From assembly GCA_965153455.1 (NCBI GenBank), contig OZ234493.1:13506213-13570212 (forward strand): 64,000 nt of DNA, given 5' to 3'. The notes under the pieces were generated by a model. The model did no database searches and was not told where the DNA came from. It was given only the letters and a program-made list of their open reading frames with translations. Within the stretch, counting starts at the first letter, position 1; each line of letters opens with the position of its first letter. The translations under genes and the position numbers were made by a program. The stretch comes from Sphagnum compactum. Lineage: Eukaryota. This document shows positions 5,219 to 54,183 of the stretch, one piece after another.

Positions 5219-5311
5219 ACCCACCAAACCTTGGGAGGAGGGAAAGCTTAAATTCTACCAGACACAAGTTTTGATTCATTTATTTCCCATGTTCTTACAG
5301 TTTCTGAATAT

Positions 5312-6018: not shown

Positions 6019-6176
6019 TGAAAGAAGTTAAGATCAGCTTCTTCCTCAATACACCAATAGAGTGGGGCTTCAACAAGCATAAGATCCTAACCTGATCCTG
6101 AAAACAAAGAAGCTGGATCTTGGACTTAGGGTTGGTTCTGTAAAGAAGAAGATCATCTCATCATCATGTCTAGACC

Positions 6177-24763: not shown

Positions 24764-25805
24764 GAGAACAACCACCATCTTCAAAGTGAAAAGGGATTGG
24801 CATCCCTCACCATGATGGCTCTTCCAACTATCTTTGAAATGAGCTTCATGGAAGTGTGGCTATCTTTGCAAACCCACAGACTTTTTGTTATTCAAAGAGG
24901 AGTACCAGGAGCTGTGTTGATGAGCCCAAATGCAATAGCCAGTTTCTCACTATGGTGACACAAATTATAACTTTTCCTCTTCTTCCACATCATCCAGAAT
25001 AAATTATGTGCAAGGCACATACCCTGCATCATGCATGAGCCCTGACAATCTCTGCAGTTCTGCATGAATTTCAATCATCTAGGGGTGGTCTTGATCCTCC
25101 ACTACAAACATATGCACCTCATAATTCACTTCAATCCAGGTGCAAACTGGCTTGTTTCTTTGCACCTTTTTCCTTTCTCTGCCATTCAATATTCTCACAG
25201 AGATGCCCATTGCCAGCAGCAGCATAGATGTTTGACAGCAGTACATAACCAGCAACACTTTCAGGCTCCATTGCAAGAATTTGTTTGGCAATGCATTCTG
25301 CCATCTCCACGTTACCATGAATTCTGCGACCACCGAGCAAAGCCATCCAAGCAGCCACCTCTGGTAGCAGGGGATTGCCATGACCATATGCTCTGCCTCC
25401 TGTAGATGGCCAGCATGGCCAAGAAGGTCAACCATACAGGTGTAATGTTCCAATTTTGCAGGAATCATATAGTGTCTGATTATTGAAGCATACAAGTGCA
25501 TGCCTTCATCCACCAGACCTGCATGGCTACAAGCTGACAGAAGACAAATAAAAGTGATATCATCTGGCTGTACACCTTCTTCACACATCCATTCAAAATG
25601 TTTAAGAGCTTCCCTACCATGCCCATGCATGGCACATCCTCCAAATATGGCATTCCAAGTCAACACATTTCAAGATGGCATCTTATTGAACAATCTCCAA
25701 GCATCCTCAAGGCTCCCACATTTTGCATACATATCAACCAAGCTACTCCCCACAATGACTCCAAACCACTTTGAACAAGTGCTGATGAACACACCTGCCC
25801 TCTTT
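24764..25805 (-). pseudogene. 5'-truncated PPR-E-DYW pseudogene (organellar C-to-U editing factor family)
   Basis: [110 protein letters not shown]...IMVRDAN. Several frameshifts, a stop, and loss of the terminal DYW. Confidence 0.9.
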
Positions 25806-25958: not shown

Positions 25959-28900
25959 GTTCAAGGCACTGCATGTGACCTTGATTGCTTGGGGTTGAAG
26001 TGCAAGAGTGTAGAATTGTATCCAATTGGAGTGGTTATTCAATTCTGATTGTGGCATGTAGAAGATAAGGTCTGTCTTTTCTTTTGCTTGAGCATGGATG
26101 TGGTCAATAGAACCCTCTGCCCTTTGTTTGTTCAGATGATGCCTGCATGAGATTTCTGACAGCTTTGTGAATCAGGTCACAAAGTATGAACTATGCAGTA
26201 ACATAGGATTCAATTTCCAACCTGATTGTCAGAAATCAAGCTAGCTAGATCATCATCTCCCTCTCAGGGTTATTGTATAACTTACTGTGACTACTCAGAT
26301 CCTTGTCTCATCTTAGTGATGATCATCACAAAAACATGAAGGGCAGCTGTTTGTACTGAAAATAGACTCTGAGAATGGACATTCTCTCTGTCTGAGAGTT
26401 GCATTTGCATTCAGAGTTGAATTAGGATTTTGACTGTTGTATCGACATTTACTTTGCAAGTATGGTTCATGTTATCTACCATACAATAATACCTTGCTGG
26501 AAACAGGTTGATGAAAATTGTGCTTGCTTTAGGTGACATGGTAGACAGCTAGTGAATGGATGCTCAGGGAAAGAAGCCCTTGGGAAAAAAGAAAAAGGGA
26601 AAGGAGATTTTTCTGTGTTCGTTGATGAAGTTGCAGCTGGTCATCTTGCATTCAGGAACCTCAGCTACAGAGTTGCAGCAGGAGGTTAGTCCCCATTCGT
26701 CCTCTTGGTTTCTTCAAAGAACTTTGTGCATGAGTGCTACATGAACTATTGCAATAACACTCTTCAATTGGGTGTTGTTTTGTATTCTTGATGCTGGGCT
26801 AGCCTATCTCTAGTAGCAACAACTGTAACTCTCATGGACGTAGATGGGTAGATTGCTGCACCCTTGAAGATTCTGTATGTTGGAATTGTTAGCCTCTTAT
26901 CATAGTGAATTGCTGTGGGTGAAGAAGACCAACATCTCAACAATTGAGGAATTCAGGTCCTTTTGGGCTTTGAACATCAGCTTGAACATGGCCTTTCTGC
27001 TTGAGGTCTTGCTGTTTGTTACTCAGGTTTGATTGTTTTGGCTTGTATACATCCTAGTTTCAAGTTCCCATGTTCCTTTGAGATGGCAAGTTGTTGGATC
27101 TCTTGGGTTTTTAATAAGGATTTCTTACCAAAGTGTATCAACTTAATTATTCATGATGAACTCGGTTATGAAAATGAGATTAAAGCAAGCTACCAAGGTT
27201 GTTATAATTAAAGTCACAACTTACGGCAAATGGCATAATCTTGCCTCCAATTAAAAATGGTGCATATATTAACATTGTTAGCAAATGAAACTCAAAACAA
27301 TGGAAATCAATATGTTGTAATATGGACCTACAATAATTCAAGTCATTTTTCAATCTTCGGTTTCCAAGATGATAAATGTTTTAGTTGACTTGTTTATAAA
27401 TTGATTATGTAATGGATGCAATTGACTTTGTACGGTGTTCATGTATGGTGGGCATGGATGAGCTATTGACAATTGAAAACCAAAATGTGTGGTCTTCTAA
27501 TCTCCAACTTTTAATTGATTGGGGTATTTCATAATAAGTTGAGGTGTATTATGGGACAATGGCAAGACATCCATTTAAAACTTTACCTCCATGAAGATCT
27601 AAAATCCATATGGTGTTGAAATAGGAACTTTTAAAAGCAAATATTGGAAGATACAAGGGCTATTTGGAGGATGTTTCAAAGATGTTTAGATGACACCTAT
27701 TCTTTTATTCCTTGACTAATCTTAAATCTATGAGTATTTACTCTAAACTCATATTTGTAAGTTCCCACCATCTCACAATTCTTTCTAATAGGAACATTTG
27801 GCACATGAAGACATTTGAATGTAGGTGTGAAAGATGCAAACACATTGTACTTTAATGCATCCTTCAAGTTTTCCAACATTGTATGAGAACACACCATACT
27901 ATTTTCATGCAACATTGGGCATGAATGTGAAAACACATTTATTTTTGACAATAATCCTTTGACACAAGGAGATTGGAGAATTTTTTAAATTGACATTCTA
28001 ATGAGTTGCATAATCAAATAAGGTATGGGTCCATATGCATCCTTTTGATGCCCATATGTGGGAGAGAGTGCTATGTTATCTAGCCCTTTACATGGGACCT
28101 TGCCTAACACACCAAGTTGGGGATACCTTCTCCACCTTACAATTGTGACCAATAACCACCTTTGTAAAAATGAACTAAAGTATCTTGAAATTGGGTTTAA
28201 AAATACTTCTGAAACAATCACCTTGTGTAGATGTATTATAGTTTTATCTATTTTTTAATTTATTTGAAATCTAATAATTTATAGTTATGAATGGATGAAG
28301 TATTTGAGGGGGAAGGGGATATCATGGCAGTAAATGGGTTGAAAATTGACAAAAATAATATAAAATTCTAACATTAATGATATAACATTGTGTTATCCTT
28401 TCTTGAAACCTAATGTAATGATATTTTACTCAGAGGTATATTTTCTCAATATGATTAAGAACTTTCAATTATTTATTTGACACATTTAATATCACTAACT
28501 TAAGACCCTTTCAGCAATCTCTATTTTACCTTTAACTTAAGACCTTTAATCAACCTCTTTGCAACCTAATCCTGCCATCCCAAGTATAACTCCCTAAGTT
28601 CAATTCTTTTTGTCCCAAGCCATCCTAGATTCAAATCTTTTGCATTTGAAATTTTGCGAACTTTGCAAATACCCCACACATCAAATAATAACCACTAAAT
28701 CATCATTAATCAATTGAAAATGTCCTTAGTTTGATTCATTTACGTTGGTTAGTAATTTAGAATGTTCAAAAAAGTCACATTTATAAAACCAATACTTATT
28801 AAGGTAAATTCCAACAACTCTTATTTATGATATTGTTACAGAAGCATTCAATTAATGCTTGTTGACATCCATTCATCCATTGCAATTTATTTATAAATAA

Positions 28901-31444
28901 CAACTCTTGCAATAGACCAGGTCAAAAATCATTGACCCTACTAGTTTTTTTTTTGCATTCACTTGGTATCTAGCACACCTAAATTATAAGTTATAAGGGT
29001 GTTAAATTTCCATGTCTTTCCATTAAAAGACCAAGAAAAGAAGGAATTTGAATGGATTACAAATATGCAAGAACCAATAAGCTTGTCAAATTCTAATTAC
29101 CGTTTAAGAGAGTGTGTCATTTGGTCAAGTGGTGACCATCCATAAGAATATTTAGCCAGATTTTGGCCACATTCAAAATATGAAAGTAGAAAAATCTTAA
29201 GCACCCTTTCAAGTTGTAAGCAGTTGTGACAATTTTTGGCCATTTCAAAGATTTTTTAATCTTTTGTTGGCCATTGTTTTTTCAAAAGACAGAGAATTTG
29301 TGACAGAACATCCTTTTTTCAAAAACAAATTCACAAAATAGCGAAAATTTGCTGCAAAAGAAAATCACTGGCCCAATTCGTTTGATTGAATAAATGTTAT
29401 TGTGAATTTTGCAAATTTACCAATACTCTCTATTGGTAACAATTTACAAGGTTGTAACTTGGAACCAGTATTGGCATGGTTTATAAGGCTCGTGTCCGGT
29501 ATCATCATGGTTATCAAGGACACTACTCATGGCCACTTTAGATGAAGGTCCAAGGTCCATGGTCCAATGAAATAGAGCAATCCTATTGGATGAGAGCCAT
29601 AAATTGGACCCCTGACCTTTATACGATGGTCCAAGACCCAAAAGTGGCAAATTAAGATGCAAAATCTACATGGCACCATTTTGGAAAGAAAATCAATTGG
29701 TTCAGACCCAAAAAACAAAGAGCTAAGAAGGAGGGCTCATGATTTGAAGAACCAAGATGCAAGCTAGGGTCCAAGGCATGGTCCAACTCAAGGATCCAAT
29801 TTGCTTCAAATGAGTCCGAATTGGTTCCTAGTAATTTGGACACTGGATCCCCATTTAAAGTGGGTCTTAATTGTATCAACAGTAGTATGCAGGACACTAC
29901 TAGGCTAGTATTGGTAGTATGGGTAGGGTCTTTGTGAATTTTCTTTTCACTGGGTCACACAGGGCAGCGTTTTTTTTTGGTGCGAATTTTTGTCAAAAGG
30001 CAACTAGAAATTAGGGCCGGCGAATGACATGAAGGGAAAATCATGATAGGTCGCCAAAGTCAACATCTCCACAGATGCTCAATTGCAAATGACATCCACC
30101 ATCCAATAATGAGTCCTCGCCTCCACCATAGATCAGAAATGTTTGAGAAGCCAGATTCAGCATCTCCGTAGATCTTCATTCATGTAAACCCTCGCATTCC
30201 TCCTCTCATTTCGCCACCTCTCTACCTTTCCTTATGTAGCATTTGTCCCCTCTTCTCCCTTCTCTCAACCTCATTTTTCCATCTCTCTTGAAAGCTTCGA
30301 TCAAGTATTTGTCGCCTTCCCGATCTATTTGTAGTAGAAGTTCGCCACCCCTTTCATCATCTCACCATAAAGTTGCCACCTTGGGATAATCTTTGATTCA
30401 TCAAGGTTTAGAGTTATTGCTTGACGATCCTTGGTCTTGTAAAATCATGATCTTCACATGGAGTCTAGGTGATGGCAATTATCCTCTTTGGAGTTGCAAG
30501 TTTGCATCAGAACTCGACGGATTGGAGTTTGGAGCTTTCCTTTGATGTTGATTTCTTGTTAGACTAACTGTCAATCTTCTTGGGTTTTTCTTCACCTTCA
30601 ACTTCAATGACATTTCACTATCCAAGTATTTTATGTTTTTCTTCTTTCATGTTTTTTGTGTTTTTTTGTTGAATATTGTGTGCATTGTGCACTTTGAAGC
30701 TCGAAGTTTGAGTGTTGAATGCATCAAATGTTTTCAATATGTGTGTCAATGTACATTGTCTACTATTGGACCTCGAGGTGTGTTGTGTGCATTGTGATTC
30801 TTTCATAAGTTGTGAAAGTCAAAGAGTTAGGATTCAAACAGTGGACCTCAAGCCTCAAGGTTTGTTAATCATTGTGTTTGTCATTTCATTCTTGAAATCC
30901 CTGGTTTGTGGTTTGACACTCTCACAATTTTTTTGGGTAAACTTTCTTATTAGGGTTTAAGGGTTAGTAGATTCTTGAAATAGAGCCTTGAACTTTAATT
31001 GTCGTGTTCTTTTTCGTTGTTACAAGTTGTGATCGTCAAGAATTTGGAGCCATGTCACCTCGTCCCAAATCCTTATGTCGTTTAGTCCCTTTGCAATTCT
31101 CTCTATATGTCAAAATCATATGTCTGCAACTTGTGTCGAATCATCAATAATTACCTAATTCTTTTGCATCGACAGTAGCAACTCATGGTGTCACCTTATC
31201 TTCAATCCTAATTCCTTTTGTGTCAATAGTCACAATGTCACCTTGAATTGTCACCTTGAATCATGATTCCGTTTGTAGCCTATCTATCAAATCTGTTTTT
31301 TGTTGGATTCTTGGCATTTGTTTTTCATGTCAAAATTCACAACAAAACTATAATCCCCTAAAAAATTTAAACACAATTTTTTTTAAAAACCAAAATCCCT
31401 CAAGTGGATGTTGCTTCTATAGCTCTTTTGTTGGTCCTCGTGCC

Positions 31445-31956
31445 ATGAAACCTGAGTCTACTTTTGTTCTTGCCATTGAACCTAATTATGTGGTTTTAGA
31501 CCATGTTGTAACAGAAAGGGACATTGAGCTATCAAAAAAAGAAAAAGGGCATACGAATTTAACATGCATTTTCAAGATACATGGGCAATGTAGCTTCCAT
31601 GGGCAAAATTTGTGCTTGGGGCTAATGGCAAAGTTGTTCAAGTTCGCTACAAGGTATGCACCCAAATTGGGGGGATAAAAAAGTTGATGGTTCTTAAAAT
31701 TGATTCTCTATGGAAACATGTTGGATGTTGCAAAACCTTAATATCTATGCTAAGTGTTAAGGTAGGGGGAACATTATTTCTTGAAAACCAATGCACATGT
31801 TGCAAATGAATAATTATATTTTGTTAAGGGTCCTAAAATAATGTTGCAACAAGTTGTTCAAGGTGTAAAACTAACCGATGAAGAAAAAAAAATGCAATTT
31901 GCACTGTTTTTTCATTTGTTGAATCGAAGATGCCTAATGAATGAATACACAACAAT
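31445..31956 (+). mobile_element. hAT-superfamily (ZNF862-like) transposase pseudogene, 5' half
   Basis: FQDTWAM*LPWAKFVLGANGKVVQVRYKVCTQIG...KIDSLWKHVG...FHLLNRRCLMNEYTT. The reading continues in frame at 44113 once the insertion is removed. Confidence 0.7.
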
Positions 31957-34276
31957 CGTAACAACACATCTTGGGTTTTACAACCGGTTAATAAAATGAC
32001 TATTTTGTTTTTTACTACAATTGTAATTACAAGTCCATGTTAATGATTGCGTAGTTGTAGAAGACATGTGGTGCCATGTGGCATTACGGTTTTGCGACCT
32101 ATATTCAATATTACAACTTGATGGTTTTTACACAAATATCAAACTTTCAAAAACATATTTTTTAATCATCCAAAATTAAGTAATAACAAAATTCCATTTA
32201 TTTTTGCAACTTTTGGTGAATAATGACAATTTATGGTCGTGTGATGCTGATGTGACATGCCACATGGCAACGAGATTGATAAGTAATTGCAACACCTCAT
32301 GACTTGTGACATTAACTTCACATCATGATTCGTGTCATTGATTTGATGAATTAATCTCATTTATTAATTATTTGAAAATATTGTTGTCCTTTGCGATTAA
32401 TAATGATTCAATCTTCCATGGGATGATGACATGGCATGCCATTAAGCAACAAGGTATCACAAATTTTCATGACAATCCATGATTTTTTGTGACACTAGCA
32501 TTAGTTACAATTTGGGTGGCTCTTATTAATGTAATTGCACCTTTTGCTCTTGCAAAACTTTCATCATAATGCTACTTAAGGTTTCATTACACAATGAACT
32601 TGAGAAACATTCACAAAATCACACTTTGGAAAATGGTCAACCAAAACTAAGTCTTGAAATCCTACAACCTTAGGGTAACCCAAAAAATTGAAATGGATTC
32701 CCATCAAAACTATAAATGTCATCTTCATTTCCTTGCATAAAGCACCTATAAAGTTTTTCCTTTATCAATGTCTAACATGTTTTTCATGTTGTGACAAAGT
32801 AATGTACTCCTTGCATGTAGGTCCTTTCATTGTTTCATCAAATTGTGTGTAGTACCTCAAACAAAGTCAAGAATAAAAAAAATGGCCTACTTAGAGTTTG
32901 AAGAACAATGTGCTTGAAATGGAGGTGCACAACCTATGAAATCATGTTAAAACTTTTCTTGATTTTCTTGATTGCAAGAAAACACCATGACACAGAAGAA
33001 GTGGAAAGTGAAATCCAAAGAAATTCCATCATTTGGATCAAATGTAAAAAAGTAAGGAAGAACTTTGTACGCACTTCATGCAAGGATCCCTTCCTGGACG
33101 GAGATCAAATCTTGGAGGATTTTGCCGATCGCCTTTTACCCAATACCTTTTGCAACTCCAACACATTTCCTCCTCTCACCTATCCACCTCTTGATAATAT
33201 TCAATACTAAAAAATAATAATATCAGGTCCAATTCTATGAGCCTAACCCATTTCGTTTTATTTTCTCACATCCGTTCAAGCCTTCCTTTTTCTACTTATT
33301 TCTATTCATCCTTTGATTTTCTGTCTAGTTCCCCCCAAAAATGGCTTTTTTGAAAAAAGAAAAAAAAATGAAGATAAAGAATCGAAAACCAAGACATGTA
33401 AGGAATTTTCTCAACCTATGTAACCCTTGTTCCGTTAGCAAGGGAGAAAAAGCAAAAGGGAAAAAAATGTTACTAATGGTCTTCATTTGATTTTCTCGAT
33501 ATACTTTTTGGTTTTGGATTTTTTGACAGTTCTTATAAGAATCTACAAAACAACCAAGATGTGGATTTTGATGCTCTTGATCTACCCTTGCATCTACAAT
33601 GAAGGTTAACAAAATTGATAATGTCTATTTATCTCTTTTCTCTTTGTATTCTTTTGTATTTTCTGGTATTCCAACAAAAAAACACAAAAGTAAGAATAAA
33701 TAAATTAATACTGAAAAACATGTATTTAATTCTTGATATATGTAGCCCTTGATGATGGATCAAGGAAAAACAAAGGGAAAATCCAAAGAACAAGGGGAAA
33801 AGGGAGAAATATCATTAAAAAAGGAAGGAAAGTAAGAAGGACAAAACATGCAAAAATCTTTATCCTTTTGTTCTTTGTGTTCTTTTACATATTTTGGTAG
33901 TTCTCAAATCAAACAGAATCAAACCTACTCATTGCTCTTGATCTAGCCTTACTCCATTTGCAATCAAGAAAAAAGAACTATGACAAAGAAAACATTTTAA
34001 AAACTGTAATCATCTCTTTTTTTATTTGTATTCTTTTGTACATGGTACATTCTAGCTTCTTGTTTGCTGAGTTGCACACTACAAGCCTCCAGTGTTGTCA
34101 TCGCCATCCTCAATTGCTTGAATCTGTGATTTGATCAATGATTGTCAATCTGAACAATCCATAATTCAATCCATTTGGTTCTGCTACAGCTTCTTTGATT
34201 TGAAACTGTGTTCTTTTGCAGGTTTGATTCATATACACCCAATTTCTCTCTAGGAGATTCTCTGAAGTGTACTGCC

Positions 34277-37200
34277 ATGGTGATGTCTGCTGCTTCTCCT
34301 TTGAGGTTAGTTATCCCATTCATAAGTTTTGGCAAAGTTTCTTTCACTGCATAATAGGTCTAACAGATCATACAGTCCTCTGAGATGCAGTGAGCTGCAA
34401 TTCTTACTTCATTTCATTGTGAGAATCACATGGAAGCAAATATGTTTCCTGAGTTTGATTGACATGAAATATTGGAGATGAGCAGCTACTATTAAGCTGG
34501 TGAAACCACAAGCCTTGCTGTAGTGTCAGCTGGCACATGGTTCAGCTTCTTGACTCACTCTAGGATAAGAAGATCTCTCAGAGAAGGTCAATTTGGGGTT
34601 GCAGAATATTGGAAGCCTCTCCAGACACATGATTGTTGGGTTTGTGATTTCGGGTCATCGATGTGAGCTGATTTCTTTGAAGAAAGATTTGAATGATAAA
34701 GTCTGGAAAATTTTCAGAGAGTGAGTCATTTGATCTTCAAATGATCTGAAAGGGTCATCATCTTTGGTAGGCGGCTAGTGGGCAAAGTGGCAGTGATAAC
34801 TGGAGCAGCCACAGGCATAGGGCATGCGACAGCACGCCTATTTGTGGCACATGGAGCCAAAGTGGTGATTGCTGATGTGAAGGACGATGCTGGGCAGACA
34901 CTGGTGAATGAGCTTGGAACAGATTGTTCCAAGTATATACACTGTGATGTCAGCAAAGAGAGCCATGTTGCTGCTGCAGTGAATCTTGCAGTGCATTCTT
35001 TTGGAAAGCTTGACATCATGTACAACAATGCAGGCATCGTAGGTGAGCTGATTCTAAATCTATGATGTTTGAACATATCTGCGAGCAAAACATTTTTTTG
35101 CTAATCAGTTGATCACACTTGCCTAATTTTTCACAGAATCAATTTGAGGATGATGAAGGCCTTGTTGATGTGATGGACTCAAGAACTTCAAGAGTCCTTC
35201 AATTGTTTGACCTACATGCAAGGCACTAAGAGAAATTTCCCAGTAGATTTGGAGGGCACCTGCTATCCATGAATATCCCTCTAGGAAAAGTGGAGGGATC
35301 TTACACTTACTCCTTAGGAGTGGGAGGGATGTTACATCTCATCCTAGGCCCCTTATTTTGCAAATGCCCCTATGCAGATAGGTATGATATGTCCTGCAAG
35401 GTTTTGGACTCAAGCAGTACATGCTAGGTAGGGCTTGTGGACGGGGCAATTACAAGAATAAGGTGCCTGCGGCAGCAGTCAAGGGCAGCACCAAATTCTG
35501 GTTACACCCTGTTCGAGGGTCTCACCATGCATAAGGACCTGTCAAGCAAACAAAGAAAACACAGTGGGCCCTTATGAAATGTGTAAGAGCCCACCCAGAA
35601 ACAGAAGATTACCTCCCATGTCAGGAGGAACCTTAAGGATTTAAGGCATCCTCCCAATACACTGGGAAATCTTTGACAGGTCATTACGAGCCAAGCAACA
35701 GTTGATTAGGATTGACTGCTGTCTTGGTAGCGTTAGAGGTTCAATTTTGAGTCTGACTGCAGGATACTGCATTTCCAAGTCCACAGGGAAGAATTGGTCA
35801 ACAAATTTCTCCCATCCTAGTATAACTTTGTATAACTTCTGCATCTCAATTTTTCCTTGGACGTGTCTACAACTCTGAGCTACCAAGTTGTACAGCTGAA
35901 TGGTTGTTTGGGAGTTGTGAATTGAATCCACTTAGTGCTTACTACTGCATCAAAGTACAGCAATCATGGATTTCAAACCAGGTGGGAGTGTTGTCTCATA
36001 TGCAGGCTCACTGTCCCCATTTGAAGCACTACCTGTTGATGAGTTTCAGAAGGTGCTAGATGTGAATTTACTGGGAACGGTAATCGGCATCAAACATGCA
36101 GCAAAAGCAATGATCCCAGCAAAGCAAGGGGTTATTATAAGCACAGCAAGCATTGGTGGATGTATTGCTGGACTAGCACCACTTGCATACAGTATCAGCA
36201 AATCAGGTGTGATTGCAACAACCTATAGTGCCTCTGCGCAACTCACAAAGCATGGCATCCGTGTGAACTGCATATCACCAGGACTCGTGGCCACACCCTT
36301 GGCACTCTCCCACCTTAGGTTTGTAGCAGCTTTGCCCTACTCTGTAAAACCTCGCAATCATAAGAGTGGGGAATAATATACTAGATAACAGGTCTAAGGG
36401 GAGGATTCCAGGTCCTAGAAAGTCCCTGTGTGGGTCTGTTATGGCTAGCTCAAGGATGCACTAAGGTCTGGAATAATGGGCTCACCCATGGACTTGCTAG
36501 GAAACCAAGAATCCACCTTGGGTGGCCCCTTATCTTGCTTTTAAGGCAGGGAACTCTTGGGGAACTGGTGGGGGTACTCCTGCCAATCCTGCAGAATCTA
36601 CAGCAGGGGCTGATTTGGCGGCCTCCAAATCACTGCACAGGGGAGCCTGAATAGGCCTTCCTTGCCATCAAGAATTACACTTAACACACCCAAATAGCAT
36701 CGAGTGGGTTTATTTTCCAGCCCAAAGCAGGTTTACACTATTTGATTGTAATACTTCATTACACTGGGGCATGCTCTTAGGCACCATCATGGCTGAGTCC
36801 TATGATAGAAACTTATTGTATTGGCTCCCATACCTTATGAAAGTCCACCTTGTGTCCATGACTCTTAAGGTGATGGGCAGGGATGTTGATAGCTGGTAAC
36901 ATAGTCTGCAACATAGTCTAGTCAGTCAATTCAATGCTCAAACTTCGCACACATTATAGATTTTCGAAGTGAGAAGGCTGTAACTGAAAATAAACAACGG
37001 TATAAACCCAAGAAGTTAAACATGAACTTTTTGAATAGTTTCGTGGATAGTTAGCATCTTCTGGAACTTAACACTCTCCAATAATGCATGTCCTAAGGCG
37101 TACTATTTGATCAGTTCCGGTGCTTTTCCCAACTCACCAGTGCTTTGGCTTTTCTGCAGAGATCTCGACCCAGACTTGAGTGAAGAACAATTTGAGAAGA

Positions 37201-37382
37201 TAGTCGAGCTAGAAAACTTTTCTAATATTGCAGGTGCAAGATCGACTCCTGAAGGGATTGCAAAGGCTGCCCTTTTCTTGGCCAGTGATGACTCACCATA
37301 TATCTCAGGCCACAACTTGGTCGTCGACGGTGGATATCTCACAAACAGAAGCTTCTCATCCTCCTCCAATCTCTCTTTTTAG
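34277..37382 (+). CDS. Short-chain dehydrogenase/reductase, SDR110C-type (ABA2 / tasselseed2 / secoisolariciresinol dehydrogenase-like), 278 aa. Exons 34277-34305, 34771-35042, 36006-36318, 37160-37382
   Basis: GT..AG introns in phases 2, 1, 2; 837 nt open from ATG to TAG. Motifs TGAATGIG, IADV (NAD-preferring Asp), HCDV, NNAG, TAS, YSISK, GIRVNCISPG, ALFLASDDSPYISGHNLVVDGG. The first exon is inferred from phase and context. Confidence 0.9.
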
Positions 37383-38586
37383 TCCTGGTTCAGTCAGTTT
37401 GTTTTCTGTTTGGTTTGCCTGTGATCAATTCAATGGGGTTTTCCTTGGTGATCTTTTCAAATTCTCAACAAAACAATGAGATCACTTTCTGCATCCTTCA
37501 AGAACTTTCAGTAGCATGAATTTTTGAAATTTTCACTTCAATATATTTTAAAGATGTGATTTTTCAATATCATTGACATTAATTCCAAAAACATTTTCAT
37601 ATTGATAAGTAATATTTCTAAATTTCATATGTCAAGACTTAGTTTATGGTTACTTTAGTTTGGGTGGTCCGAAGAAAAAAAGATTAAAAGTTTTTGGGCC
37701 CCTAATTTTTCCACAATAGTTTTCAATAGTGTATAAATTGTGTTAAACCCAATAAAGTATTGATGATGGCATCCAAGGCTATGGCAAAGTTAGGGTTTGA
37801 CAATCCTTTGAAATAGGACTTGGCTTTTTGCAATGGTTTTCAACCTTTTTTCTTTTGATTTGCCTAGTTTTGTGTGGTTGGCTTTGTAGGTTTAAAATTG
37901 TCATGTTGAAATACTTCAAACCAATCACAGACTTGCTACAATTAACACTCCATGAATTTGCCAATCCACACAATAATTTGGCGAACAAAAATATAAGCAT
38001 TTTGTACATGAATAGATGATGCATACTCATCTCTTCCATGAACCTATGATGCAAATGTTGATATGTAGAAGCGACCCCAATATAAAAACTTGTCCAGGGC
38101 ACATGACCTAATACCAAAAGGCCCACCTAATGCGTTCTTTAGGCTTCCAATCCATAATAAATCCAATTCATTACAAAGTTGACATCCATTAATCTTCATC
38201 TTTGTATGAACAGTAATCTCAGCCCTGATGTTTGAAGAGCGATTACTAAGCATATCATATGTTATCGATTTCCAACGTTCCATTAAATCCTGCAACTGGC
38301 ACAATCTGGTATGCATCATGCGCATAGTAATTGGCCCAGGTTTAAAATTTAGGGTTAGTGAGGCCTATTTACAATTGAGCTCCTAAAAAACCTCTTTCTT
38401 CATGGGCACAAAATGTTCCATGTCTCTTAAGTCATCATGTTTCATCAAACCTCATAGTTCACATCATCCATTTTTTTTTTCACACACTAGCACAACCCCA
38501 TTCTCCACCCCCTTTCCTATGTAAACCACACACCACCCATTAATTTCCCATACCATTTTGATAAACCATACACCACACACTAGCTT

Positions 38587-39496
38587 TGATGCACCCCCAA
38601 ATTTCTGGATAGATTCAATTGCGAGTCCAAAGGTGAAAACAATGGAAGGACAAGGAGTTGGGCACGCTTCCTGGCTCGTAGCATTTCGGGGGTAGAAGGG
38701 TGTGTTGGAGCTCCGGGATGGGGATTAGAACGAATGATAAACAAATCAATTATTCACATGGATCTGCACAAACGAAACAACAAGTTGATTAGTGCATAGC
38801 TGGAACACTTTTGGTGCACGGACAAACCACGGGTAAACACAAACTCACAAAACTCACCACGGCCCAAACTTGGGGGAAGCCACCACCTTCCCCCTTATAG
38901 TATTCTCTGTGCCTGGCCATGAGGCCAGCACCCAAATGTCATTTTGTCTTAGGACTCCCAAGTTGGAGTCCCCAAATTCCCTAAATTGGGACTTCCGCAA
39001 CTTTGGAGGCCCATAACTTGGTGTGCAGACCTTCAATTGAGGTGAGGTCTGAATCAAAGTTATAGCCCTTGTCAAGAGCTTTTCAACGATATGTGGCACG
39101 CCACCTGCACACAAGGAAATCAGGGCGATTCCTATCTTTTAGTGCTCGGGAATCAAATTGACAATTTGACTCTTGGCCTTTCTTTTGGCCATAACTTATG
39201 ATTTAAATGCCCAAATGGGTCATGCAAACCCATTTTAGAGATCTACGTTCTAAGAGCTTTCCAATGGTATAAGGAACATTTCAATCCAATGAATTTTGAC
39301 CCTTCAATCACCCTCTGAAAATTTGGGAGTCCATTGAACTCGCAAAGTGAGAGCTCACTTGGGAGTGTGGGGGTTCATTCCCTCACACTTTCCTACACTC
39401 CTAGGAGCATGAAATGTGACCCCCGGGCTTCACTCTTGGCCCGCACCTTTGCAAGTCTTTGCCTTGGTCGCAAGCCCAAGGCTAGGGTTGTGAACA
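38587..39496 (-). mobile_element. Solo LTR (~910 bp)
   Basis: TG...CA termini; flanks AGCTT/AACTC are compatible with a decayed 5-bp TSD. Homologous (reverse complement) to the element starting at 63626 (CAACCCTAGCCTTGG...GACCAAGGCAA...GAGTGTGAGGGA.TGAACCC.CACACTCCCAAGTGA). No internal coding region. Confidence 0.75.
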
Positions 39497-39779
39497 AACT
39501 CCCCTTATTGACCTTCAACCTTTCGTGTGAATGTGGAACCCCCATCCAACATTTTTTTAATCCCGAGCTAAATAATTCACAGTAAGACCTTTTCCCCCTT
39601 CCATTCTATTAGCCCACATAATTCCTCATGATTTAATCGCCCAACCTACCCCCATCCTCCCAACACATTTACAACCTCCACCTAAAACCTGTTACCCCAC
39701 CTATGGGCATCAATTTACCCTTTGAAGGTTAACTTTCACTAGCATTTTTGTTAGGCATCCAATTCATCTAAGCCAAACC

Positions 39780-41440
39780 GTACATGACCATTCTGGCCCA
39801 ATACCTTCCCGTACTCTTAACCCGCTTGCATCAACCTGGGCTTGGGTTTCGACATTGAATGTCCTCAAGTTTTTCCATTTTGGCTTTCGTCGTTCTCAAT
39901 TATTCAACCACATCCCTACCACTTTACAATGTGATATACAAGTGGCATTTCGTTTTCCACTAAATAAATTAGCACAAAACCCTTATGATGTGGCAGCTTG
40001 GCATTTGTCTTTCATGTTACCACAATGGTGTCTTATTTTGCCCCCTCAAGGGGGGCCACTAAACATAGGGAAATGTCGATCTGACCCAAACAATTTTTAA
40101 CAAGTGATTAGGAAAACTTGTAGAAGGAATTTTTTTACAAACCCAATCTTTGGCAGCAAGTTGGAACTCAATGCCTCTTACCCAACATGATCTTCCAAAT
40201 CAAAAATGCCTTCTCTGCAGTGTAATCCTTGGATGTGTAGGAGAATAATCTTGAACATCACATGTTCTAACACCATTCCTCTTACACCCACGTCCTTAGC
40301 TCTCATCATTCTACATCATGAATCAAATGGTTTATTCCCAATTTTTTTGGAAAACTACAAACTAGACCAAAACCTTGAATTTTCATTTGACTCCTTCAAG
40401 TTAACATTCCAATGCATGCTAAATTTATCTACAAGTGATTTTTTTGGGACGGTTTTCGAACACCTCCAAAATTGTTTACACCCATAAAACTTTCCAAATG
40501 GATTCCCACAATTGTTTCAACTTTGCTCTCATATTGCTCAAGGTCACATTCCATGTTAAATTACACATATCCTTGGGGTGACCCACCTTTTAACCATGAC
40601 CAAACCCTTAGGTGGAGTTTGTCCCATTGATTTAAAAGAAACATTGCATCAACTCACAAGGCGCACTTTATGCCTTCAATTTTGCAATACATTTGCAACA
40701 CATTTATCCTCACACCAATTTGGAGTAACAACCAAGGGTGGATGTGAAACCGTAATCCATGGCATCAAGTGCACCTTGAACCTTCACCCCAACTAGGTTG
40801 TTTTCTAACTAAACATGGCAAATGCCTTTAATTCAATGTCAAAAGGGGTCATATTTCCAAAACTTCATGTAAAAGGTGGGGACATCATACAACTTATCCC
40901 TTTGTTCATGCATTTTACACATTAAAATCTCCCTTGTTTTATAGTCACAATAACCATGATGGCGATGTCATAATCATCCCATTTGCCATGAGAACTCATC
41001 AAGGTGATATTTTGAGAGGGGCATTATTTACCTTAACTCACTTTAGGGCACTACATTTTATAGTTAACCATTTCCCCTTTTATTTATTTCGATCCATTGC
41101 AAATGACATTCACATCATTGCCCCCCCCCCCCCCCCCTGCCTCCATTGTATTGTCTAGATATGAAAACTTTTAAATTAAACTTTGTGTAATAGGTCTTTC
41201 TATTTGACTTCATAAATATATAGCATGGTCCCCTTTTGGCCTACTATTTGATTTCAACACCCCATCCCAATTTAACCATGAGAAGGAATTAAAGTTTTGG
41301 GGGTTCCATTAAACACTTCATCATTCATATCATCTTTCATCAAGAATACCATGTTAAAAGATGTTCAACATGTTGACCTTCTCCCTAAATGGGTAATGTT
41401 CAAGTAACCTTTGGAATTATAACTCATTATTTCACGCATA
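39780..41440 (+). mobile_element. Decayed RLE-type (CRE-like) non-LTR retrotransposon, reverse transcriptase region
   Basis: KPLGGVCPI, HQFGVTTKGGCE, NMANAFNSM, HQGDILRGALF, IANDIHII (decayed xADD) and KVLGVP. Many stops. Confidence 0.75.
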
Positions 41441-42879
41441 GGAAATCACTCACATATTTGTGTTATTAACTCTTCCACAAACATATCCATTTAATCTAAA
41501 AGTTTGAAGTTGCATCTTCACCTAAAAGAACAACTACTAATCTTTTAATCAAAGGATGCAAGATGGTTCAAAAGTCAAATAGGATTATATTCATGTATAA
41601 CTATGTGATTAAAGAGATGGAATGCTGATGCTAGACATGATTGTTAAATCTCATTAGAATTTGAAACAACAGACAACGATTTTAGAATTGCAAGTTTCAA
41701 TTAATTGATTGTGACAATTAGAAAGGGTAGTCCACAAGGAGGGGTTCACAAAATTCAAATGAGCTTGTAAATGAATTGACATAGAATGGAATAAGTCAAA
41801 GGCATCATACCCATTTCCATCAAACTAGCACACAAGATAATAAATATCCCCAAAATTCATTCACTAACGAGGCTAATGGATAAAATGTAGGAAGGTCTAA
41901 GTTGCACAATTTGTGTGTGTATGCCAATAGGGGGAAATACCACTTAAGGCACACACATGCACACAAGTTTAGATAATTTTATTTTTTTTCAGTTTACAAT
42001 TTTTCAAAATAGACAAATTTTTTTGGATCAAACAAGAACATAATTTTTTTGCATATATCCATCAAAATGACAAAGTATTCATGCCAAAGACATACATGGA
42101 TACCTACATCCTTTTAGAGATAAAAATAACTTTGTTGAGTGAGAGAGAGAGACAAAGAAAGAGAGCACGATAAGCTAGCAATTCCAACATGCAATGGAAC
42201 CCTTTACCATATGGCCAAAGAATGAAACGTGAAAATGTTTTGGAACCCATCATTAATTACCACTAGTATTTGGAAACTGGACTGAATATTGGATTTGGTA
42301 CCACTTGCACAAACTCCCCATTCAAGCATTCCTTTGAAAACAAAAATGGACACAAGAAGCTAAGGTTTGTCAATATCTCATTTCTCACACCTCTACTTTT
42401 TTTTTTACCTCAAGGATGATCAAATGTTCTAAAACAAAATTGCCAAAACACCAGTTTTTCATTCAACTTCATTTTCTTTAACAAGTACATAGTTGCAAAT
42501 ATTGATCTATCCAACAAAAATCAAATGATCAGCCTAGAAAAAAAAAGGGAATTATAACCTGGACAAATTCCATTTCTGCAACAAATTCACAAGAATTGAT
42601 TTAGAGATTGTGAGGTTGGAAGTTTAGTTTGTTTCATTAGCCACTGGTTCGAAGTAACTGGTAAGAATGTAATGCAGATTGCTTGTTGATTTCCTTGTGT
42701 GTTTTGAATTTATGGCACCAATATTTGTCATTGCATGCCATAATTTTTTGTGTGCCATGAGGTTTTTGAAGTCATGAATTCACATGCATTTGTATGTGTA
42801 CTAAACAATCTATTGTTAATTTGTAATCGTGACTACAATGTTAATAATTGTTTTGAGAAAGGTGACACAACTCCTTGAC

Positions 42880-43770
42880 TTTTTAACTACTTACCACATT
42901 AGTTTAGGTTAACATACTTATTACATTTACCTATGTATGTAGGCTACTTAGTAAAAACCTATTTTGTTATATAGGCTATGTCAGGTACTTAAATGAACAT
43001 AAGAATTTTATTACATCCAGTATGTTTAAATATACCTACAATAGGTTACCCTACTAATAGGTTAACCTAAGTAGGCTTACCTAGGTTCCTAGCTTCAAGT
43101 TTTTTGTCAAATCAACCTAGGTAGTCTCATTATAAAATATTTTATCAAGTTTGTACCACTTCAAGTTTGTGCAATTAGATGCAACTATGATGCGACTAAA
43201 TGCAACATAATTATCCTAGGTTTTTTTTAGCCTAAGAATGCCTAAATTAACCTAGGCTAGGTTAGTAAGTAGTATATGTTGATAAACTAGTTCATCTTAA
43301 ATCAACCTAGGGAGGTATAAATGTAGGCTAGGTTGGTAGGTGGTAGGTAAGTTGACCTAGGTCAACCTAGGGTTCCCAAGGTTAATTCAAGGCTAAAAAT
43401 TTTAAGTTTTATAACTTTGTGTTAAATATAATTAGTATAAAAAAATGTGGTAGTGCAATGGATGAGGACTTGAACCCCAAAATGAAAGTGAGGGGTTCAA
43501 GTCCTCACTCTTACAACTTATATATGATACCCAGGCCACTTGGTTTAGGTTAAATAGCCTAGTTTAGGCTTCTTGGGTTAAAAATCTGATGTTTGTTTTT
43601 AATGTAGGCCACCTAGCTTAGGTTGCTTAACATAAGTAGTTAGCCTAGCTAGGTTAAGTTAGGTTGACTTTTGGGTAGGCGAATTAGGCTAAGTTGCCTA
43701 GCTTAGCTAGGATATGTTAAGTTGGCTTTTGGTTACACTAGCTACATGGGGTAAACTAGATTGACTTTTG
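42880..43770. repeat. Array of short palindromic ACCTAGGT / TAGGTTAACCTA / CTAGGCTAGG motifs near the right end of the 12-kb insertion
   Basis: Dozens of CCTAGG, AACCTA and TAGGTT words in both orientations, e.g. TAGGTTAACCTA at 43058-43069 and GTTGACCTAGGTCAAC at 43351-43366. Confidence 0.7.
43446..43517 (+). other. tRNA-derived (SINE-like) A/B-box remnant forming a perfect 16-bp hairpin
   Basis: A-box-like TGGTAGTGCAATGG and B-box GGTTCAAGTCC. TGAGGACTTGAACCCC (43463-43478) pairs with GGGGTTCAAGTCCTCA (43492-43507). Confidence 0.5.
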
Positions 43771-44112
43771 GTCATGTGCAATGATTCAAACATGTTTATA
43801 GATTTTGACACATGTCATCCATCCATCAAGGCGTCTTTTGTAACACTTAACTGAATCAAATAATTAAATTGAGATGGCATGCACTTTATTCATCATACCA
43901 AGGTTAATGATGATATGAAATTTCATTATATAAAAATAATAATTAATCATAGTAGTTTAAATGACTGAGCTTTGCAATTGAACATCCCTTGAGACTAAAT
44001 GGGTGAAACGACATGGGTTTAACAACTCATCAATCACTAGTCACATATGTCCCTTCTAACTAGTATGTACTTGTAAAGGCTAGTTGCACAACCCAAATGT
44101 GTTGTTGTGAAT

Positions 44113-45862
44113 GTAAAATTTATTTTTACAATTCAACGTTCCTAACAATCCCATGAAACACTAGTATGATAGAGGAGGGTGGGAAATGGCAAATTGCTTG
44201 TGTGAACAAGTCTTGAAAAAAAATTGGGTTGTTGTGGCTAATGCAAGTTTCCTTTCTCTCAATGCAAATGAAGTTACTACGGTTTATAATCAATCTTGAA
44301 ATTTTATTCACATGTATGTGATGTAGGCATGGAATCAAGTGCTTATCCTTTTGACACTTCAATGTGTAATAGAAGGTGAAACTGCAAATAATTTCACTCT
44401 TATGATTACTTAATCCCTCATGCAGCAACGAAAATTAACTCAAGAAGAGACAATTGATCTCCTATTTGTTTTAATGCAAAAGGTGCATCTTTTTTTCAAA
44501 GTTGTCGCACTATAGTGATAACCCAATTGAAGGAAAAATATTTTCTTTACATGATGGGGCAACATTACATGGCCCATAGAACAAACTTGGATGTCCAAGC
44601 TTTGTCGAATCTTCCAATGGTGGCTAAGTTGGAAGAGCTTTTACAATCCTTGTCTTCTTACTTTTCTAGCTCCCTTAAGTGAAATTTGGAGTTCACTAAG
44701 CTTGTTAAGATTGTGGAAACAGGAGGGCTCAAAATTCTACAAAATGTGAAAATTCAATGGATATCAATGTTGGAGCCCTTGAAATGTGTGTTAACAGAAT
44801 ATAAAACTCTAATTTTAAAGATGGCACATGACGGTGCTTCAATTGTTCAAGTGAGGTTGAATCTTGACCTCCTTTGTGATGTTCACACATTGTTGGATCT
44901 ATTTTATTTGCTACCATTCTTGAAGGTAGTCAATGCTTTGATCAAATTTGCCCAGGGGAAAGATGTGTTCAATATGTAATGTTGTGGTAGTCGTGAAGAT
45001 TTGTCAAGCTAATTTCTTGATGATGTACTCTAATCTTGCCACCTCCTACAAATGTGAACATTTTTAGTTATTTTGTGATGTGTTTGAAACAATTATTCCA
45101 CCATCACTCATGATTGGGTTATTGGTCTAAACAATGGTTCATAATTTCTTTCTTTTTGGATGGTTCATCATAGTTATTAAGCTCATATTTACAATGTAGT
45201 TACTGGTATTAACCAAACCATCTGCAAAGATAATTTGTTGGCATCCATTGGGCAAGTGAAAGCCCAATGTTCTGTTGCAACTCATATGCTTATGATAGAA
45301 TTGGATTGACATTTTGCAAATTATAAGTTGATGAATGTCTTTAGCATTGTATCCACAGTTCTAGATGGAGCCTGATGTTGATTATGCTTTCTTCTTTATT
45401 TTATGACCATAAAAAAAAATTATTGTGAAACAAAGAAGGTGAGACCTTCACTTTTGTAAGTTGCAAAACCTTTGAATGCCAACATTGTGGATTTGCAGGC
45501 AAGCATATTCAAGCTTATGATGAAATCATAGGCACTGAAGGCTATGGGTGAGCCTTTTGACAAGAATCAAATTATTAAGATGTGGATTATAATCAACATT
45601 AATACTTTGTTAACCAAATGGCTAAGTGAGTTCTTGAAGTTGGCGGAAATTGTTGTGGTGTCAATTTTTGGATCTATGGAAAATGAATGCATTTTTTCAA
45701 TGTTTACTTTCATGAAAAATAAACTACGCAATAGGTTGGGACCTAATTTAAACATAATTGTCTGAATGTTTGCACAAGAGTTTTATACATAAGAAAACCT
45801 CCCTTATCAGGATGCAATCGCAACATGGAAGGATCAAAAAGTGCGAATTAGTCTGCCATTTG
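44113..45862 (+). mobile_element. hAT-superfamily transposase pseudogene, 3' half including dimerisation domain
   Basis: NVPNNPMKH*YDRGGWEMA, NEVTTVYNQS, HYMAHRTNL, KILQNVKIQWISMLEPLK, LSEFLKLAEIVVVSIFGSMENECIFSMFTFMKNKLRNRLGPNL. Confidence 0.8.
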
Positions 45863-46077
45863 AAGGTTCAATATCTTTCTATCCAGTTGTTTATGTTTCC
45901 ATGATTTAAACAAGTTTGGTGAAGATACTTACTTGTTCATAAGTTTTACTAACATTTGGGTGTGGTGGGTGGGACTTTGACTTACAATGGGCAAAGTTTA
46001 ATTTCAAATTAGGGTTCAACTCCCTTTCAAATTCTAAATTTTGGGTGAAAACACACTAAATGTGAACCACTTTTGTT

Positions 46078-46820
46078 CAAAAAAGGTGATGTATAACAAA
46101 TATTTTAATATGTAGTAAGCTAAAATCTTGATGACATCTTTTGGTTATTTTAAACACAAGTAAAAAACTTTAAAATTTACACAACATTTTTGCACTCAAA
46201 GTTCATTTTGAATCAAAATTAATTTTCATCTAACAATTAAGTGGGGAGGATTGGATAAAAATCAATGTACATAGAATATATAACACATAGTTTTTCAATG
46301 GGCATAGGGCTTCATGTTTATGATTCATGAAACATTACTAAACAAAAGAAAATTGAAAAAATAATGTAATGCCCATTTATAAAATCTCCTCCTCTTTGAT
46401 ATGGTATTGGTTTTCCCCCTAAAAAAAGATAATATTATGCATTCATTACTAAACAAATGTAAAAAAAATATTTTTTGAATGGAATTTCATCCACAAACTT
46501 TAAAATTCTAAATTTTCCCAGATTTAATTGATGTTTATCAATAACGTACACCATAAAAAGTTTCACCCAAAAATTCCATCCACAACCCTAGTTTTGAAAT
46601 ATATATTCAAATTTTCAAACTTTGTGACGAATATTACTTTGTCACATATATATTCCATACATTCAAATTCTTCAATGTTTGTTGAAATTTTCAAAATAAT
46701 TGATTAGATGAAATTTAAAGCCAATCAAATATACTTAAAACAATCAAAATAATCCAATATGTGATGGCCATACATTACCAAAAAAATTAATTATAAAAAG
46801 ATTATACGTGTGACTACAAT
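46078..46820 (+). repeat. Dispersed ~740-bp AT-rich repeat, copy 1 (copy 2 at 54184-54912)
   Basis: Shared CAAAAAAGGTGATGT, AATCAAAATTAATTT, CATAGGG.TTCATGTTT, CACAACCCTAGTTTTGAA, CAATGTTTGTTGAA and AAAATAATCCAA. Confidence 0.8.
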
Positions 46821-46950
46821 TTGGGGGGGGGGCTTAATGTGCTTTCACCCTTTTAAGTTTGATTGTTTATGGTTTAGTATAATCTTCAAATTAGTTTAAA
46901 TTTTAGATTTGATTGCCACTTTGAATTTTCTACTATATATATTTTTCTAA

Positions 46951-52589: not shown

Positions 52590-54150
52590 TTGTTTTAATT
52601 CTCTAGCCCTGCCCTGTAAGTGCATTGTTTGGTCCCCTTCCGTATTGCCAACTAGCTTTACCCCTCTTCATGGTTTTTATTGCCTTCCTGACGACATTAA
52701 GGTTTTAGGGGTCCCCTTTGGCTTTGTAGTGTTCTCCTCTTCTTTTTTGCAAGATGCTTTGGATGAGAATATTTGCCATGCAAATGCCCTTTCAAGGTTG
52801 GGGCATGTCTAGGTCACTTTCGGGATCTTTTCTCAATGTTTCATGTAGAGGCCTTCTTATTTGCTTTGTGCTTTCCCACCGCTCCTGAGCTTCCGACATG
52901 AGCTTGCTTCCTTTGACTTGATCCTCATGCAAGTTTTCGAGAAGCTTTTAAGCCCAGGTTGCTTTGAGTGTTCAAAGGCCCCTTTGGTGCATTGGGAGGT
53001 TATTTCTAGTGGAAGTAGGGGCCTCATCTCAGCAAAGACCATTGAGCTGACAACTTTCTTGGGGAGTTGGGCACTAGTAACGTTGGTCATTACTTCTAGA
53101 TTCTTGTTAAATTCACATCCAATTTTATTGGAAGCCATTGGGTCGAGCAGTTTGGGTTCACTCCCTTTCCAAGTGCGCATGAGGTTGTTTTGGAGGCTTC
53201 TTCCCCTGATTGCAATAGCATGTTTACCCTCATTGGAGCAGCTTGTAGAAAGGGGAACAAATCAACTTCAAGAGATTATTTCAAAAAATATATATGACCA
53301 TTCATTTTCCCGCATCATTTGTAACATGTATTTTAACTCACATTGAGCGCGTCTGAGGTCATGTGCAGGGCTGCACCTGGGAACTTAGTTGTTTGCTTAC
53401 ACTATCACCCTATGTTTTTATCTGCCTTTTAATGTTTTCTTTTGCACGTTGTAGACTAGATTAGGCCTCCCTCATCCTCTGGCTTTTGGTCTAACACATT
53501 GCATTTGTGATTAGTCGTTAAACCCCATGGGGGTCCACCTCCTTCGCTACGCCCATAGTGGGGAAAGGACTACATCCCATGATGTTATTTGGGATGCTTT
53601 TGTAAACATTATGAGAGATGTAAGGTTTCATGTTTTGTGGTAACAAATCCACATTCTTCCATCGCCTTCTTTTTAGTCTTTTTTTAGGCGGGTCAACATT
53701 GTTTTGTCGGTTGATGGCATTCGCACATTGGATAATGTCATCATTACCGACCCCACTCAAGCATACTTGGTATCACGGGCGACTCATTCTCATGGGGTGG
53801 TTGTGACATTAGTAGTTCATGTGAAGGAAGGATTTTATCATGATTGTTACCCAATGGATGTGTTTCTCCCTCTTGCCATAGAGGTTTTTGAGAGTCTTCA
53901 CCAATAGGCCAACAACTTTCTTCATCAATGTGCTAACATTGTGTGGACAACAAAGGGCACCAAAGGCCCTCCTTTATCAATGTTGTGTTCCTTTTACAAA
54001 TAGAGAGTGTTTGTGGCAATATAAATAGTGCAAGTTGTTTCCATCTTGAAATGAGTTGTTATTGCAAAGGAGGGTTCATCTAAGCTTGGAGTTTTATCAA
54101 GTTTACCTCCCCCTTTTGTACTTGATATGTTTCATGCAATTGGTGGAAGG
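52590..54150 (+). mobile_element. 5'-truncated RLE-type (CRE-like) non-LTR retrotransposon: RT C-terminus, zinc knuckle and restriction-like endonuclease region
   Basis: KCIVWSPS...IKVLGVPFG, FLGSWALV, HCICD*SLNPMGVHLLRYAHSGERTTSHD (decayed CCHC), RVNIVLSVDGIRTLDNVIITDP, KEGFYHD...FLPLAIEVF. Confidence 0.75.
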
Positions 54151-54183
54151 GTGAAAGCACATTACAAGTGAGCCAATTTTCAT

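Follow-up and report, generated by a model that had tools for sequence, protein, structure and literature searches.

A complete short-chain dehydrogenase gene in a probable Pack-type DNA transposon within a hAT-like pseudogene of the peat moss Sphagnum compactum

Introduction

The capture of host DNA by transposons with terminal inverted repeats (TIRs) is well documented in flowering plants, where mostly gene fragments are involved, and the cases usually described as Pack-TYPE elements are likewise fragments. Among the superfamilies to be considered, MULEs make target duplications of 9-11 bp and have long TIRs, and PIF/Harbinger elements usually insert at the target TWA (TTA or TAA). Here we analyse a window of 64,000 nucleotides from Sphagnum compactum (the whole stretch from 13,506,213 to 13,570,212 of contig OZ234493.1, assembly GCA_965153455.1), in which a 12-kb TIR element lies in a hAT-like transposase pseudogene and holds a complete gene of the short-chain dehydrogenase (SDR) type. 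The closest described systems are the Pack-CACTA elements (Catoni et al., 2019, PMC6379663; Gisby and Catoni, 2022, PMC8903248; reviewed in PMC13317346), the Pack-MULEs of rice, in which host gene sequence was acquired within a TIR element and selection on the captured copy is doubtful (PMC5861414), and GingerRoot, a DNA transposon of bryophytes and lycophytes with gene fragments in 29% of its elements (PMC6839031). In the main text of the Pack-TYPE survey (PMC8903248) the terms moss, bryophyte, Physcomitr- and Sphagnum do not occur, and full-text literature searches found no paper on Pack-type elements in Sphagnum.

Akin to the Pack-CACTA elements, the element in the window is non-autonomous, is flanked by a short duplication, has no transposase and carries host DNA between conserved arms. 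It differs from them in its cargo, a whole 4-exon gene with promoter in 10.2 kb, and in the position of its arms, which are contiguous on the family consensus, as a fill-in of a single element would explain better than the published two-element route. With CACTA/CMC elements as such, to which a preliminary description of the locus had likened it, the element shares a 3-bp duplication (known from one insertion) and a CAC start at one end, but its ends read CGTAAC... and CACAAC... (the right end reverse-complemented) rather than CACTA/G, and no partner transposase was met, though no search aimed at one was made; the likeness is one of resemblance. CACTA/CMC elements have subterminal arrays of short motifs in both orientations at both ends; the motif CCTAGGTTRR, which recalls them, clusters here in both orientations in the right arm only. 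The 3-bp duplication and the short TIRs also recall PIF/Harbinger, but the target is AAT, not TWA, and a six-frame Pfam search of the insert, which returned SDR only, gave no PIF-type transposase or Myb-like partner. The superfamily may be CACTA-like or PIF-like. As in Pack-MULEs, host gene sequence of doubtful selection resides in a TIR element, but the duplication of 3 bp and the TIR of about 28 nt set the two apart. With GingerRoot it has in common a bryophyte-lineage DNA transposon with gene-derived cargo; identity with GingerRoot is excluded by the 6-bp duplication and the TIRs of 100-150 bp given for that element in PMC6839031.

Results

A search with the read-through translation of 44458-44979 (P0001) returned six longer homologues, and tblastn on the window placed homologous proteins on both sides of a 12-kb gap: residues 170-232 of P0004 align with 31766-31954 and residues 236-325 with 44120-44389, while for P0002 residues 9-71 fall on the same left interval and residues 74-186 on 44117-44455. 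The residues left unaligned at the break (three in P0004, two in P0002) correspond exactly to 31955-31956 plus 44113-44119 or 44113-44116, respectively. Since both homologues are colinear and their unaligned residues are accounted for, removing 31957-44112 (12,156 nt, or 3 x 4052) restores the length and the frame of the hAT-like reading. The window, P0004 and P0002 also agree in having 23 residues between the conserved H and N-V-P. Protein colinearity sets the position of the break without recourse to the inverted ends and argues for a 3-bp AAT duplication. The letters are ...ACACAACAAT|CGTAACAACACATCTTGGGTT at the left junction and ...AACCCAAATGTGTTGTTGTG|AATGTAAAAT at the right, with AAT at 31954-31956 and again at 44110-44112, as the preliminary description had noted on both sides of the insert. 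A single insertion, 12,153 bp plus the 3-bp AAT duplication, interrupts the hAT-like reading.

The same description had proposed aligning the joined hAT halves to intact relatives and had called the transposase split exactly in frame. The alignment gave two homologues colinear across the break once the insert is taken out, and to that extent the claim holds; the host reading itself is a pseudogene with stops and frameshifts, so that 'in frame' means colinear, not open. Pfam searches of the hAT pieces of the window and of P0002-P0004, at E values up to 10, returned no relevant family (sole match GumK_N, E 0.052, in P0004). The protein-atlas clusters nearest to P0003, a lead, carry DUF4371, Dimer_Tnp_hAT and FAM200-ZBED5 (ZMYM1/FAM200; score 0.96, 194 of 256 features shared), and the interrupted gene is likely hAT-like, albeit without a profile match.

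For comparison with other copies, contigs of three DNA runs (X1, X9, X12) and reads of one RNA run (X22) were mapped on 30800-45900 at a likeness of at least 80%. Metagenome contigs were scanned with the S. jensenii SDR protein P0008, which gave 77 loci; 44 of these (L034-L077), which are of bacterial type or from gut samples and show no more than 33% identity, were excluded before all counts, and the 33 moss-like loci (L001-L033) were used, one of which (L024, 36%) has no DNA match to the window. The right junction is spanned by an X1 contig (44001-44636, 0 differences) and an X12 contig (44075-44932), the left junction by an X9 contig (30800-31988), an X12 contig (31428-31988) and the metagenome locus L003. 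Among the X1 pieces listed, a minority of all X1 pieces, none crosses the left junction, and the empty-site joint 31956->44113 is not among the 15 joints listed, besides which there are a further 1,090.

The inverted ends, at first put at about 20 bp, extend further: with a single gap, 23 of the first 28 nt of the insert match the reverse complement of its last 28 nt. Anchored at the fixed break position, this score is reached by 0 of 100,000 random pairs from the window, whereas an unanchored inverted-repeat scan of the window yields chance pairs that are equally good (I4 vs I6), so that the significance of the TIRs rests on their position. The two arms, 540 bp and about 1,411 bp long, belong to a multi-copy family. 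Summed word depth, which is not a copy number, is near 40 in single-copy contigs and reaches 1400-4700 in 31808-32495 and 42392-44407. The best supported joint in other copies, 32495->42695, leads from one arm directly to the other across about 9 letters and is present in 4 contigs of X1, 2 of X9 and 5 of X12; the variants 32495->42698 and 32494->42698 occur in 2, 1 and 2 and in 1, 1 and 1 contigs of the same runs. The usual family member thus consists of the arms joined directly and measures about 2 kb (539 + 9 + 1415), provided that its arms have the same length as those of the insert. Six-frame Pfam searches of 31957-44112 found no transposase, the matches being to SDR families only, and the insert is a non-autonomous TIR element. 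What had been described as a palindromic array is real and proves to be a cluster of CCTAGGTTRR in the right arm: 18 of the 28 matches in the window, in both orientations, fall within 43062-43907 (9.5 matches are expected for the window as a whole), and none falls in the left arm (31957-32496). Self-BLAST revealed no other arm copies in the window, and when the TIR core was searched for with a fuzzy match, 240,561 bases from the 33 moss loci included, the search met the two ends in the window, the orthologous end in L003 and two weak, chance-like matches, with no other copy.

Between the arms, where the family consensus has about 12 nt, stands a block of 10,202 bp (32497-42698). Its left edge is covered by four loci. 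L003 goes on through the arm and the hAT-like gene to the flank beyond. In L006, L008 and L010, homology stops at 32497-32499, and past that point these three have a different flank in common (88-93% identity to each other). The right edge is reached by two loci, L015 and L025 (99.5% alike; the same locus in two samples), which lose homology at 42698 and run on into different sequence. A donor locus had been among the things to look for, and such arm-less loci with the same block are what was found. The flank of L008 carries a CHY-zinc-finger-like open reading frame (ORF) and a dioxygenase-like ORF (PDB match, E = 0.0014, 26 residues), which makes the arm-less context genic; a homologous-protein search with the latter ORF returned no match. 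The cargo is a copy of a chromosomal segment that elsewhere stands without arms, adjoining ordinary genes. It comprises the complete SDR gene together with 1.8 kb of upstream and 5.3 kb of downstream sequence; the latter includes remains of older repeats and part of a neighbouring gene of the dioxygenase type. Because the edges of the block in arm-less loci are the interruption point of the family consensus, a coincidence not expected for the reverse direction, the chromosomal segment would have been copied into the element. A tree built on 36006-37650 unites the window with L019 and L003/L004 in a composite clade (support 1.0) that branches from within the arm-less copies, and the direction of copying appears to be from chromosome to element. 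The clade of L009, L012 and L002 is the nearest relative of the composite and may be the true donor lineage.

L003 is colinear with the window over 28000-39172, from the flank and the N-terminal part of the hAT-like gene through an identical junction AAT|CGTAACAAC and the left arm into the block with the SDR gene, and is the orthologous composite in a relative. Given the composite and its left junction in this contig, and junction-crossing contigs in two other species-labelled runs, the event is older than those splits.

We therefore consider it probable that the locus is a Pack-type (gene-capturing) non-autonomous TIR DNA transposon that lies in an old hAT-like transposase pseudogene and carries a copied chromosomal segment. 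It shows the features by which Pack-TYPE elements are recognised, namely TIRs with a target duplication, no transposase of its own and internal sequence from a host locus without transposable-element arms; and the arm-less loci together with the family joint support the earlier suggestion of an intron-containing SDR gene from elsewhere, held in a non-autonomous DNA transposon with a 3-bp duplication. Several points weigh against this reading. One composite copy was seen, with the bin 32816-33319 at single-copy depth in X1, so that there is no direct evidence of a loaded element moving as a unit; the 33 moss loci, a limited data set, contain no second loaded copy, and neither more than one loaded copy nor a polymorphic insertion, by which the mobility of Pack-TYPE elements is judged, was found. 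The duplication length and the consensus ends of the family come from one insertion, there being no other copy in the window or the 33 loci, and the evidence for the number of arms is the summed word depth, with the limit given above. The left and right donor-type flanks are from different contigs and may not be one locus, no contig has the right arm adjoining the block in a relative (L003 ends at 39172), and the metagenome contigs may include chimeras.

The SDR gene has three GT-AG introns and an ORF of 837 nt (278 codons). Pfam adh_short (PF00106) matches two of its exons at 8e-22 and 6e-22, and the motifs TGAATGIG (cofactor), NNAG, STAS and S...YSISK (catalytic) can all be read, which bears out the complete 4-exon gene with intact catalytic motifs of the preliminary description. 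Its best solved relatives are borneol and secoisolariciresinol dehydrogenases, and we take it to belong to SDR110C. The closest proteins are those of Sphagnum, with 93% identity to P0008 of S. jensenii (exon 3) and 82-87% to proteins from chromosomes 11, 16 and 18 of S. magellanicum.

That this gene stayed intact while the transposon sequence around it decayed is true of the ORF, but its intactness needs no selection. The frame is open in each of the four full-length copies compared (window, L003, L008, L010). The window and L003 differ by 29 nucleotides, 21 amino acids and one in-frame 3-nt deletion, at a dN/dS of 1.02 (0.71 for the window against L008 and 0.98 against L010); exons have diverged as much as non-coding sequence (3.5% vs 3.4% for L003, 5.7% vs 5.5% for L008); and the simulated chance of no stop after 29 random substitutions is ~0.5. 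With equal divergence, a dN/dS of about 1 and such a chance, no selection in the composite lineage is needed, and the intact ORF would be compatible with a young neutral copy inside a much older hAT pseudogene. A functional gene that selection has kept intact is a tentative alternative, which we hold to be the less likely one although it is the best of those considered. The open ORF, the three canonical introns and the included promoter region speak for it, as does the divergence from L003, which over 34000-37200, introns included, is 2-3 times less than over 28000-33665, the stretch that comprises the flank, the hAT part, the left arm and the left of the block (0.026 vs 0.069 per site; transitions 0.013 vs 0.045, transversions 0.0125 vs 0.024); mutation rate, chromatin, conversion or a chimeric contig are possible reasons for the lower value in the gene region. 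Against L008, moreover, there are 0 indel events in exons and 17 in 2,747 bp of non-coding sequence, a scarcity that points to constraint somewhere in the family. On the other side stand the dN/dS values and the equal divergence of exons and non-coding sequence, and the RNA evidence is of the same tenor: reads of X22 carry the paralogue letter in 49 of 50 cases at 37193 and in 62 of 62 at 37202, while in the X1 DNA one contig has the letter of the window and two have the other. The window copy is not detectably expressed in this one RNA sample, and neither of the two cDNA-like contigs (L001, L002) falls in the composite clade. Most likely, the SDR copy is a structurally intact, unconstrained, silent or weakly expressed duplicate.

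The cDNA-like contigs are themselves of note. L002 (1,318 nt) has intron 3 removed and part of intron 2 kept, and belongs to the clade of L012; L001 (1,290 nt) is fully spliced and stands closest to L017. Two or more further SDR paralogues are thus transcribed.

As to the route of capture by the Pack-type element, the segment would have entered one element, either through a template switch while a gap was being repaired or through the joining of ends at a break within it; the element may by then already have been in the hAT gene or may have moved there later. We prefer a fill-in into a single element because the arms abut on the family consensus with ~12 nt replaced; the inner joints show no duplication, and at the right joint TTG is common to element and donor. 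In the model in print for Pack-CACTA (PMC13317346 and PMC6379663), two family members would have inserted on either side of a native SDR gene, and complementary terminal deletions would have left a hybrid element that moved the intervening DNA into the hAT gene. The layout expected, a 5' arm, chromosomal DNA and a 3' arm, is the one observed, but the inner arm ends abut on the consensus within ~12 nt, as two independent truncations would rarely do (we estimate ~12 in 2,000), and the arm-less loci carry no arm remnant at either edge, which makes this model unlikely here.

We give still less weight to a 10.2-kb block that was itself mobile, or was brought by another element such as a Helitron-like carrier, into a resident 2-kb element. 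Its sharp edges are reproduced in two contexts, as such a model would have them, but the block ends in neither an inverted nor a direct terminal repeat, its inner joints lack a duplication, and neither strand shows 5'-TC / CTRR-3' ends; the left flanks of the three arm-less loci, being homologous, are what one ancestral locus would give and not what independent insertions would. Helitron ends at the block edges were looked for by eye on both strands and are not present. An artefact, whether a misassembly or a chance pair of inverted ends, is scarcely credible, for although the unanchored scan yields pairs as good, independent short-read contigs and a metagenome contig cross both junctions between them, protein colinearity sets the position separately, and no random pair passed the anchored test.

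The features of the locus are collected in Table 1.

Table 1. Features of the interrupted hAT-like pseudogene, the inserted element and its cargo (positions in the window)
Feature	Position	Strand	Basis
hAT-like (ZMYM1/FAM200-type) transposase pseudogene, likely; N-terminal part up to the break	31501..31956	+	tblastn of P0004 residues 88-232 on 31501-31954 and P0002 residues 9-71 on 31766-31954; stops, frameshift
Left copy of the 3-bp target duplication AAT	31954..31956		same in orthologous contig L003
Left terminal inverted repeat, 28 nt window	31957..31984	+	23/28 vs reverse complement of 44082-44109
Left arm of TIR element, multi-copy family	31957..32496		summed contig word depth (not a copy number) 2000-2800 vs ~40 in single-copy flanks; joint 32495->42695 in other copies
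Captured chromosomal block, 10,202 bp	32497..42698		left-edge homology to arm-less L006, L008, L010 from 32497-32499; right-edge homology to L015, L025 until 42698
Short-chain dehydrogenase gene, presumed SDR110C type; 4 exons (34277-34305, 34771-35042, 36006-36318, 37160-37382), 278 aa	34277..37382	+	Pfam, homologues, exon models
Repeat in intron 2, like a miniature inverted-repeat transposable element (MITE)	35235..35670		34-nt inverted arms; depth 1000-1400 in its bins; also in L003, L008 (colinear)
443-bp insertion	37914..38356		missing from L003, L004, L012, L015, L025; joint 37913->38357
Very high-copy repeat like a solo long terminal repeat (LTR), TG...CA	38587..39493		depth 13,000-93,000; loose ends 38587, 39490, 39493
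Moderately repeated stretch with reverse-transcriptase (RT)-like ORFs, class unconfirmed	39503..41383	+	depth 740-2700 in bins 39872-41383; colinear with L015
Exon-like fragment, presumed carotenoid-cleavage-dioxygenase type, in-frame stop	42259..42331	-	RNA loose ends on both sides
Right arm of TIR element with CCTAGGTTRR cluster (43062-43907) and right TIR (44082-44109)	42699..44109		depth 1400-4700
Right copy of the target duplication AAT	44110..44112		junction sequence, tblastn colinearity
hAT-like transposase pseudogene, likely; C-terminal part	44113..45774	+	tblastn of P0003 residues 1-97 on 44120-44407 and residues 117-559 on 44464-45774; also P0002, P0004

Within the block, the MITE-like repeat of intron 2 is present in all copies. 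The LTR-like repeat at 38587-39493 is missing from L015 and L012, and L003, colinear over 38357-39172, has at least its first part; a solo LTR, as first described, is plausible in view of its TG...CA ends, its depth of up to 93,000 and its absence from these two loci, but no clean duplication flanks it. The CRE-like fragment of the same description could not be confirmed: the RT-like stretch has no Pfam match in six frames, an Atlas score of only 0.86, and RVT_1 on 10% of one cluster. From the 73-nt exon-like fragment at 42259-42331, RNA reads continue on both sides into sequence not present in the window. Read together with these, it gives a motif of the carotenoid-cleavage-dioxygenase type, to which we tentatively assign it from this motif and a weak PDB match of a neighbouring-type exon in L008 (6970-7320, minus strand). 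As this fragment and the RT-like stretch are also in L015, both are older than the capture. In the parental locus, the SDR gene may have stood next to or within dioxygenase-type genes, recalling the NCED/ABA2 pair.

Some further observations concern the block and its surroundings. After the equivalent of 37657, the arm-less loci L008, L010, L013-L016, L025, L026 and L028 have extra sequence (~880 bp in L015), which the window, L003, L004 and L012 are without. Over 41384-42391, poly-A RNA reads have the first mate on the plus strand, at a depth of 15-17 and opposite to the SDR reads, as from a minus-strand or paralogue transcript that matches a low-copy part of the block. The depth of the bin 32816-33319 is 45 in X1, 161 in X12 (~4x) and 1.26 in X9, though an X9 contig spans the left junction, and a deletion or a different state of the locus is possible. 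Another contig with an SDR paralogue, L013, has a hAT-like fragment (7927-9203) about 5.4 kb downstream of the gene that starts near the residue at which the window is broken; a second composite is ruled out there, since the fragment has no DNA homology to the hAT of the window, and its position is probably a coincidence. Other internal repeats in the window self-BLAST, tandem-like arrays and dispersed pairs of 72-82% identity (350-1317, 5300-6020, 20270-21670 / 25280-25800, 46043-46845 / 54149-54933), are unrelated to the insert.

Discussion

The locus is a clean example of gene capture by mobile DNA, a process with precedents, and its value lies in the combination of base-pair resolution at all four joints, an arm-less locus of the parental type, an orthologue from a related organism, a complete multi-exon gene, promoter included, as cargo and a bryophyte host. 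It offers a natural test case both for the route of capture, in which fill-in of a single element stands against mobilisation by two, and for the retention of a whole gene once captured. On the present evidence the copy, intact but without sign of selection or expression, would be raw material rather than a proven new gene.

A far bolder view, to which we give little credence, is that the TIR family acts as a whole-gene transduplicator in peat mosses: it would have taken a complete, promoter-bearing SDR110C gene from a locus at which genes of the SDR and the carotenoid-cleavage-dioxygenase type adjoin, reminiscent of the NCED and ABA2 steps of apocarotenoid metabolism, and set down a functional copy under different regulation in new chromatin. 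If that were true, the growth of this specialised-metabolism gene family in Sphagnum would be owed in part to DNA transposons.

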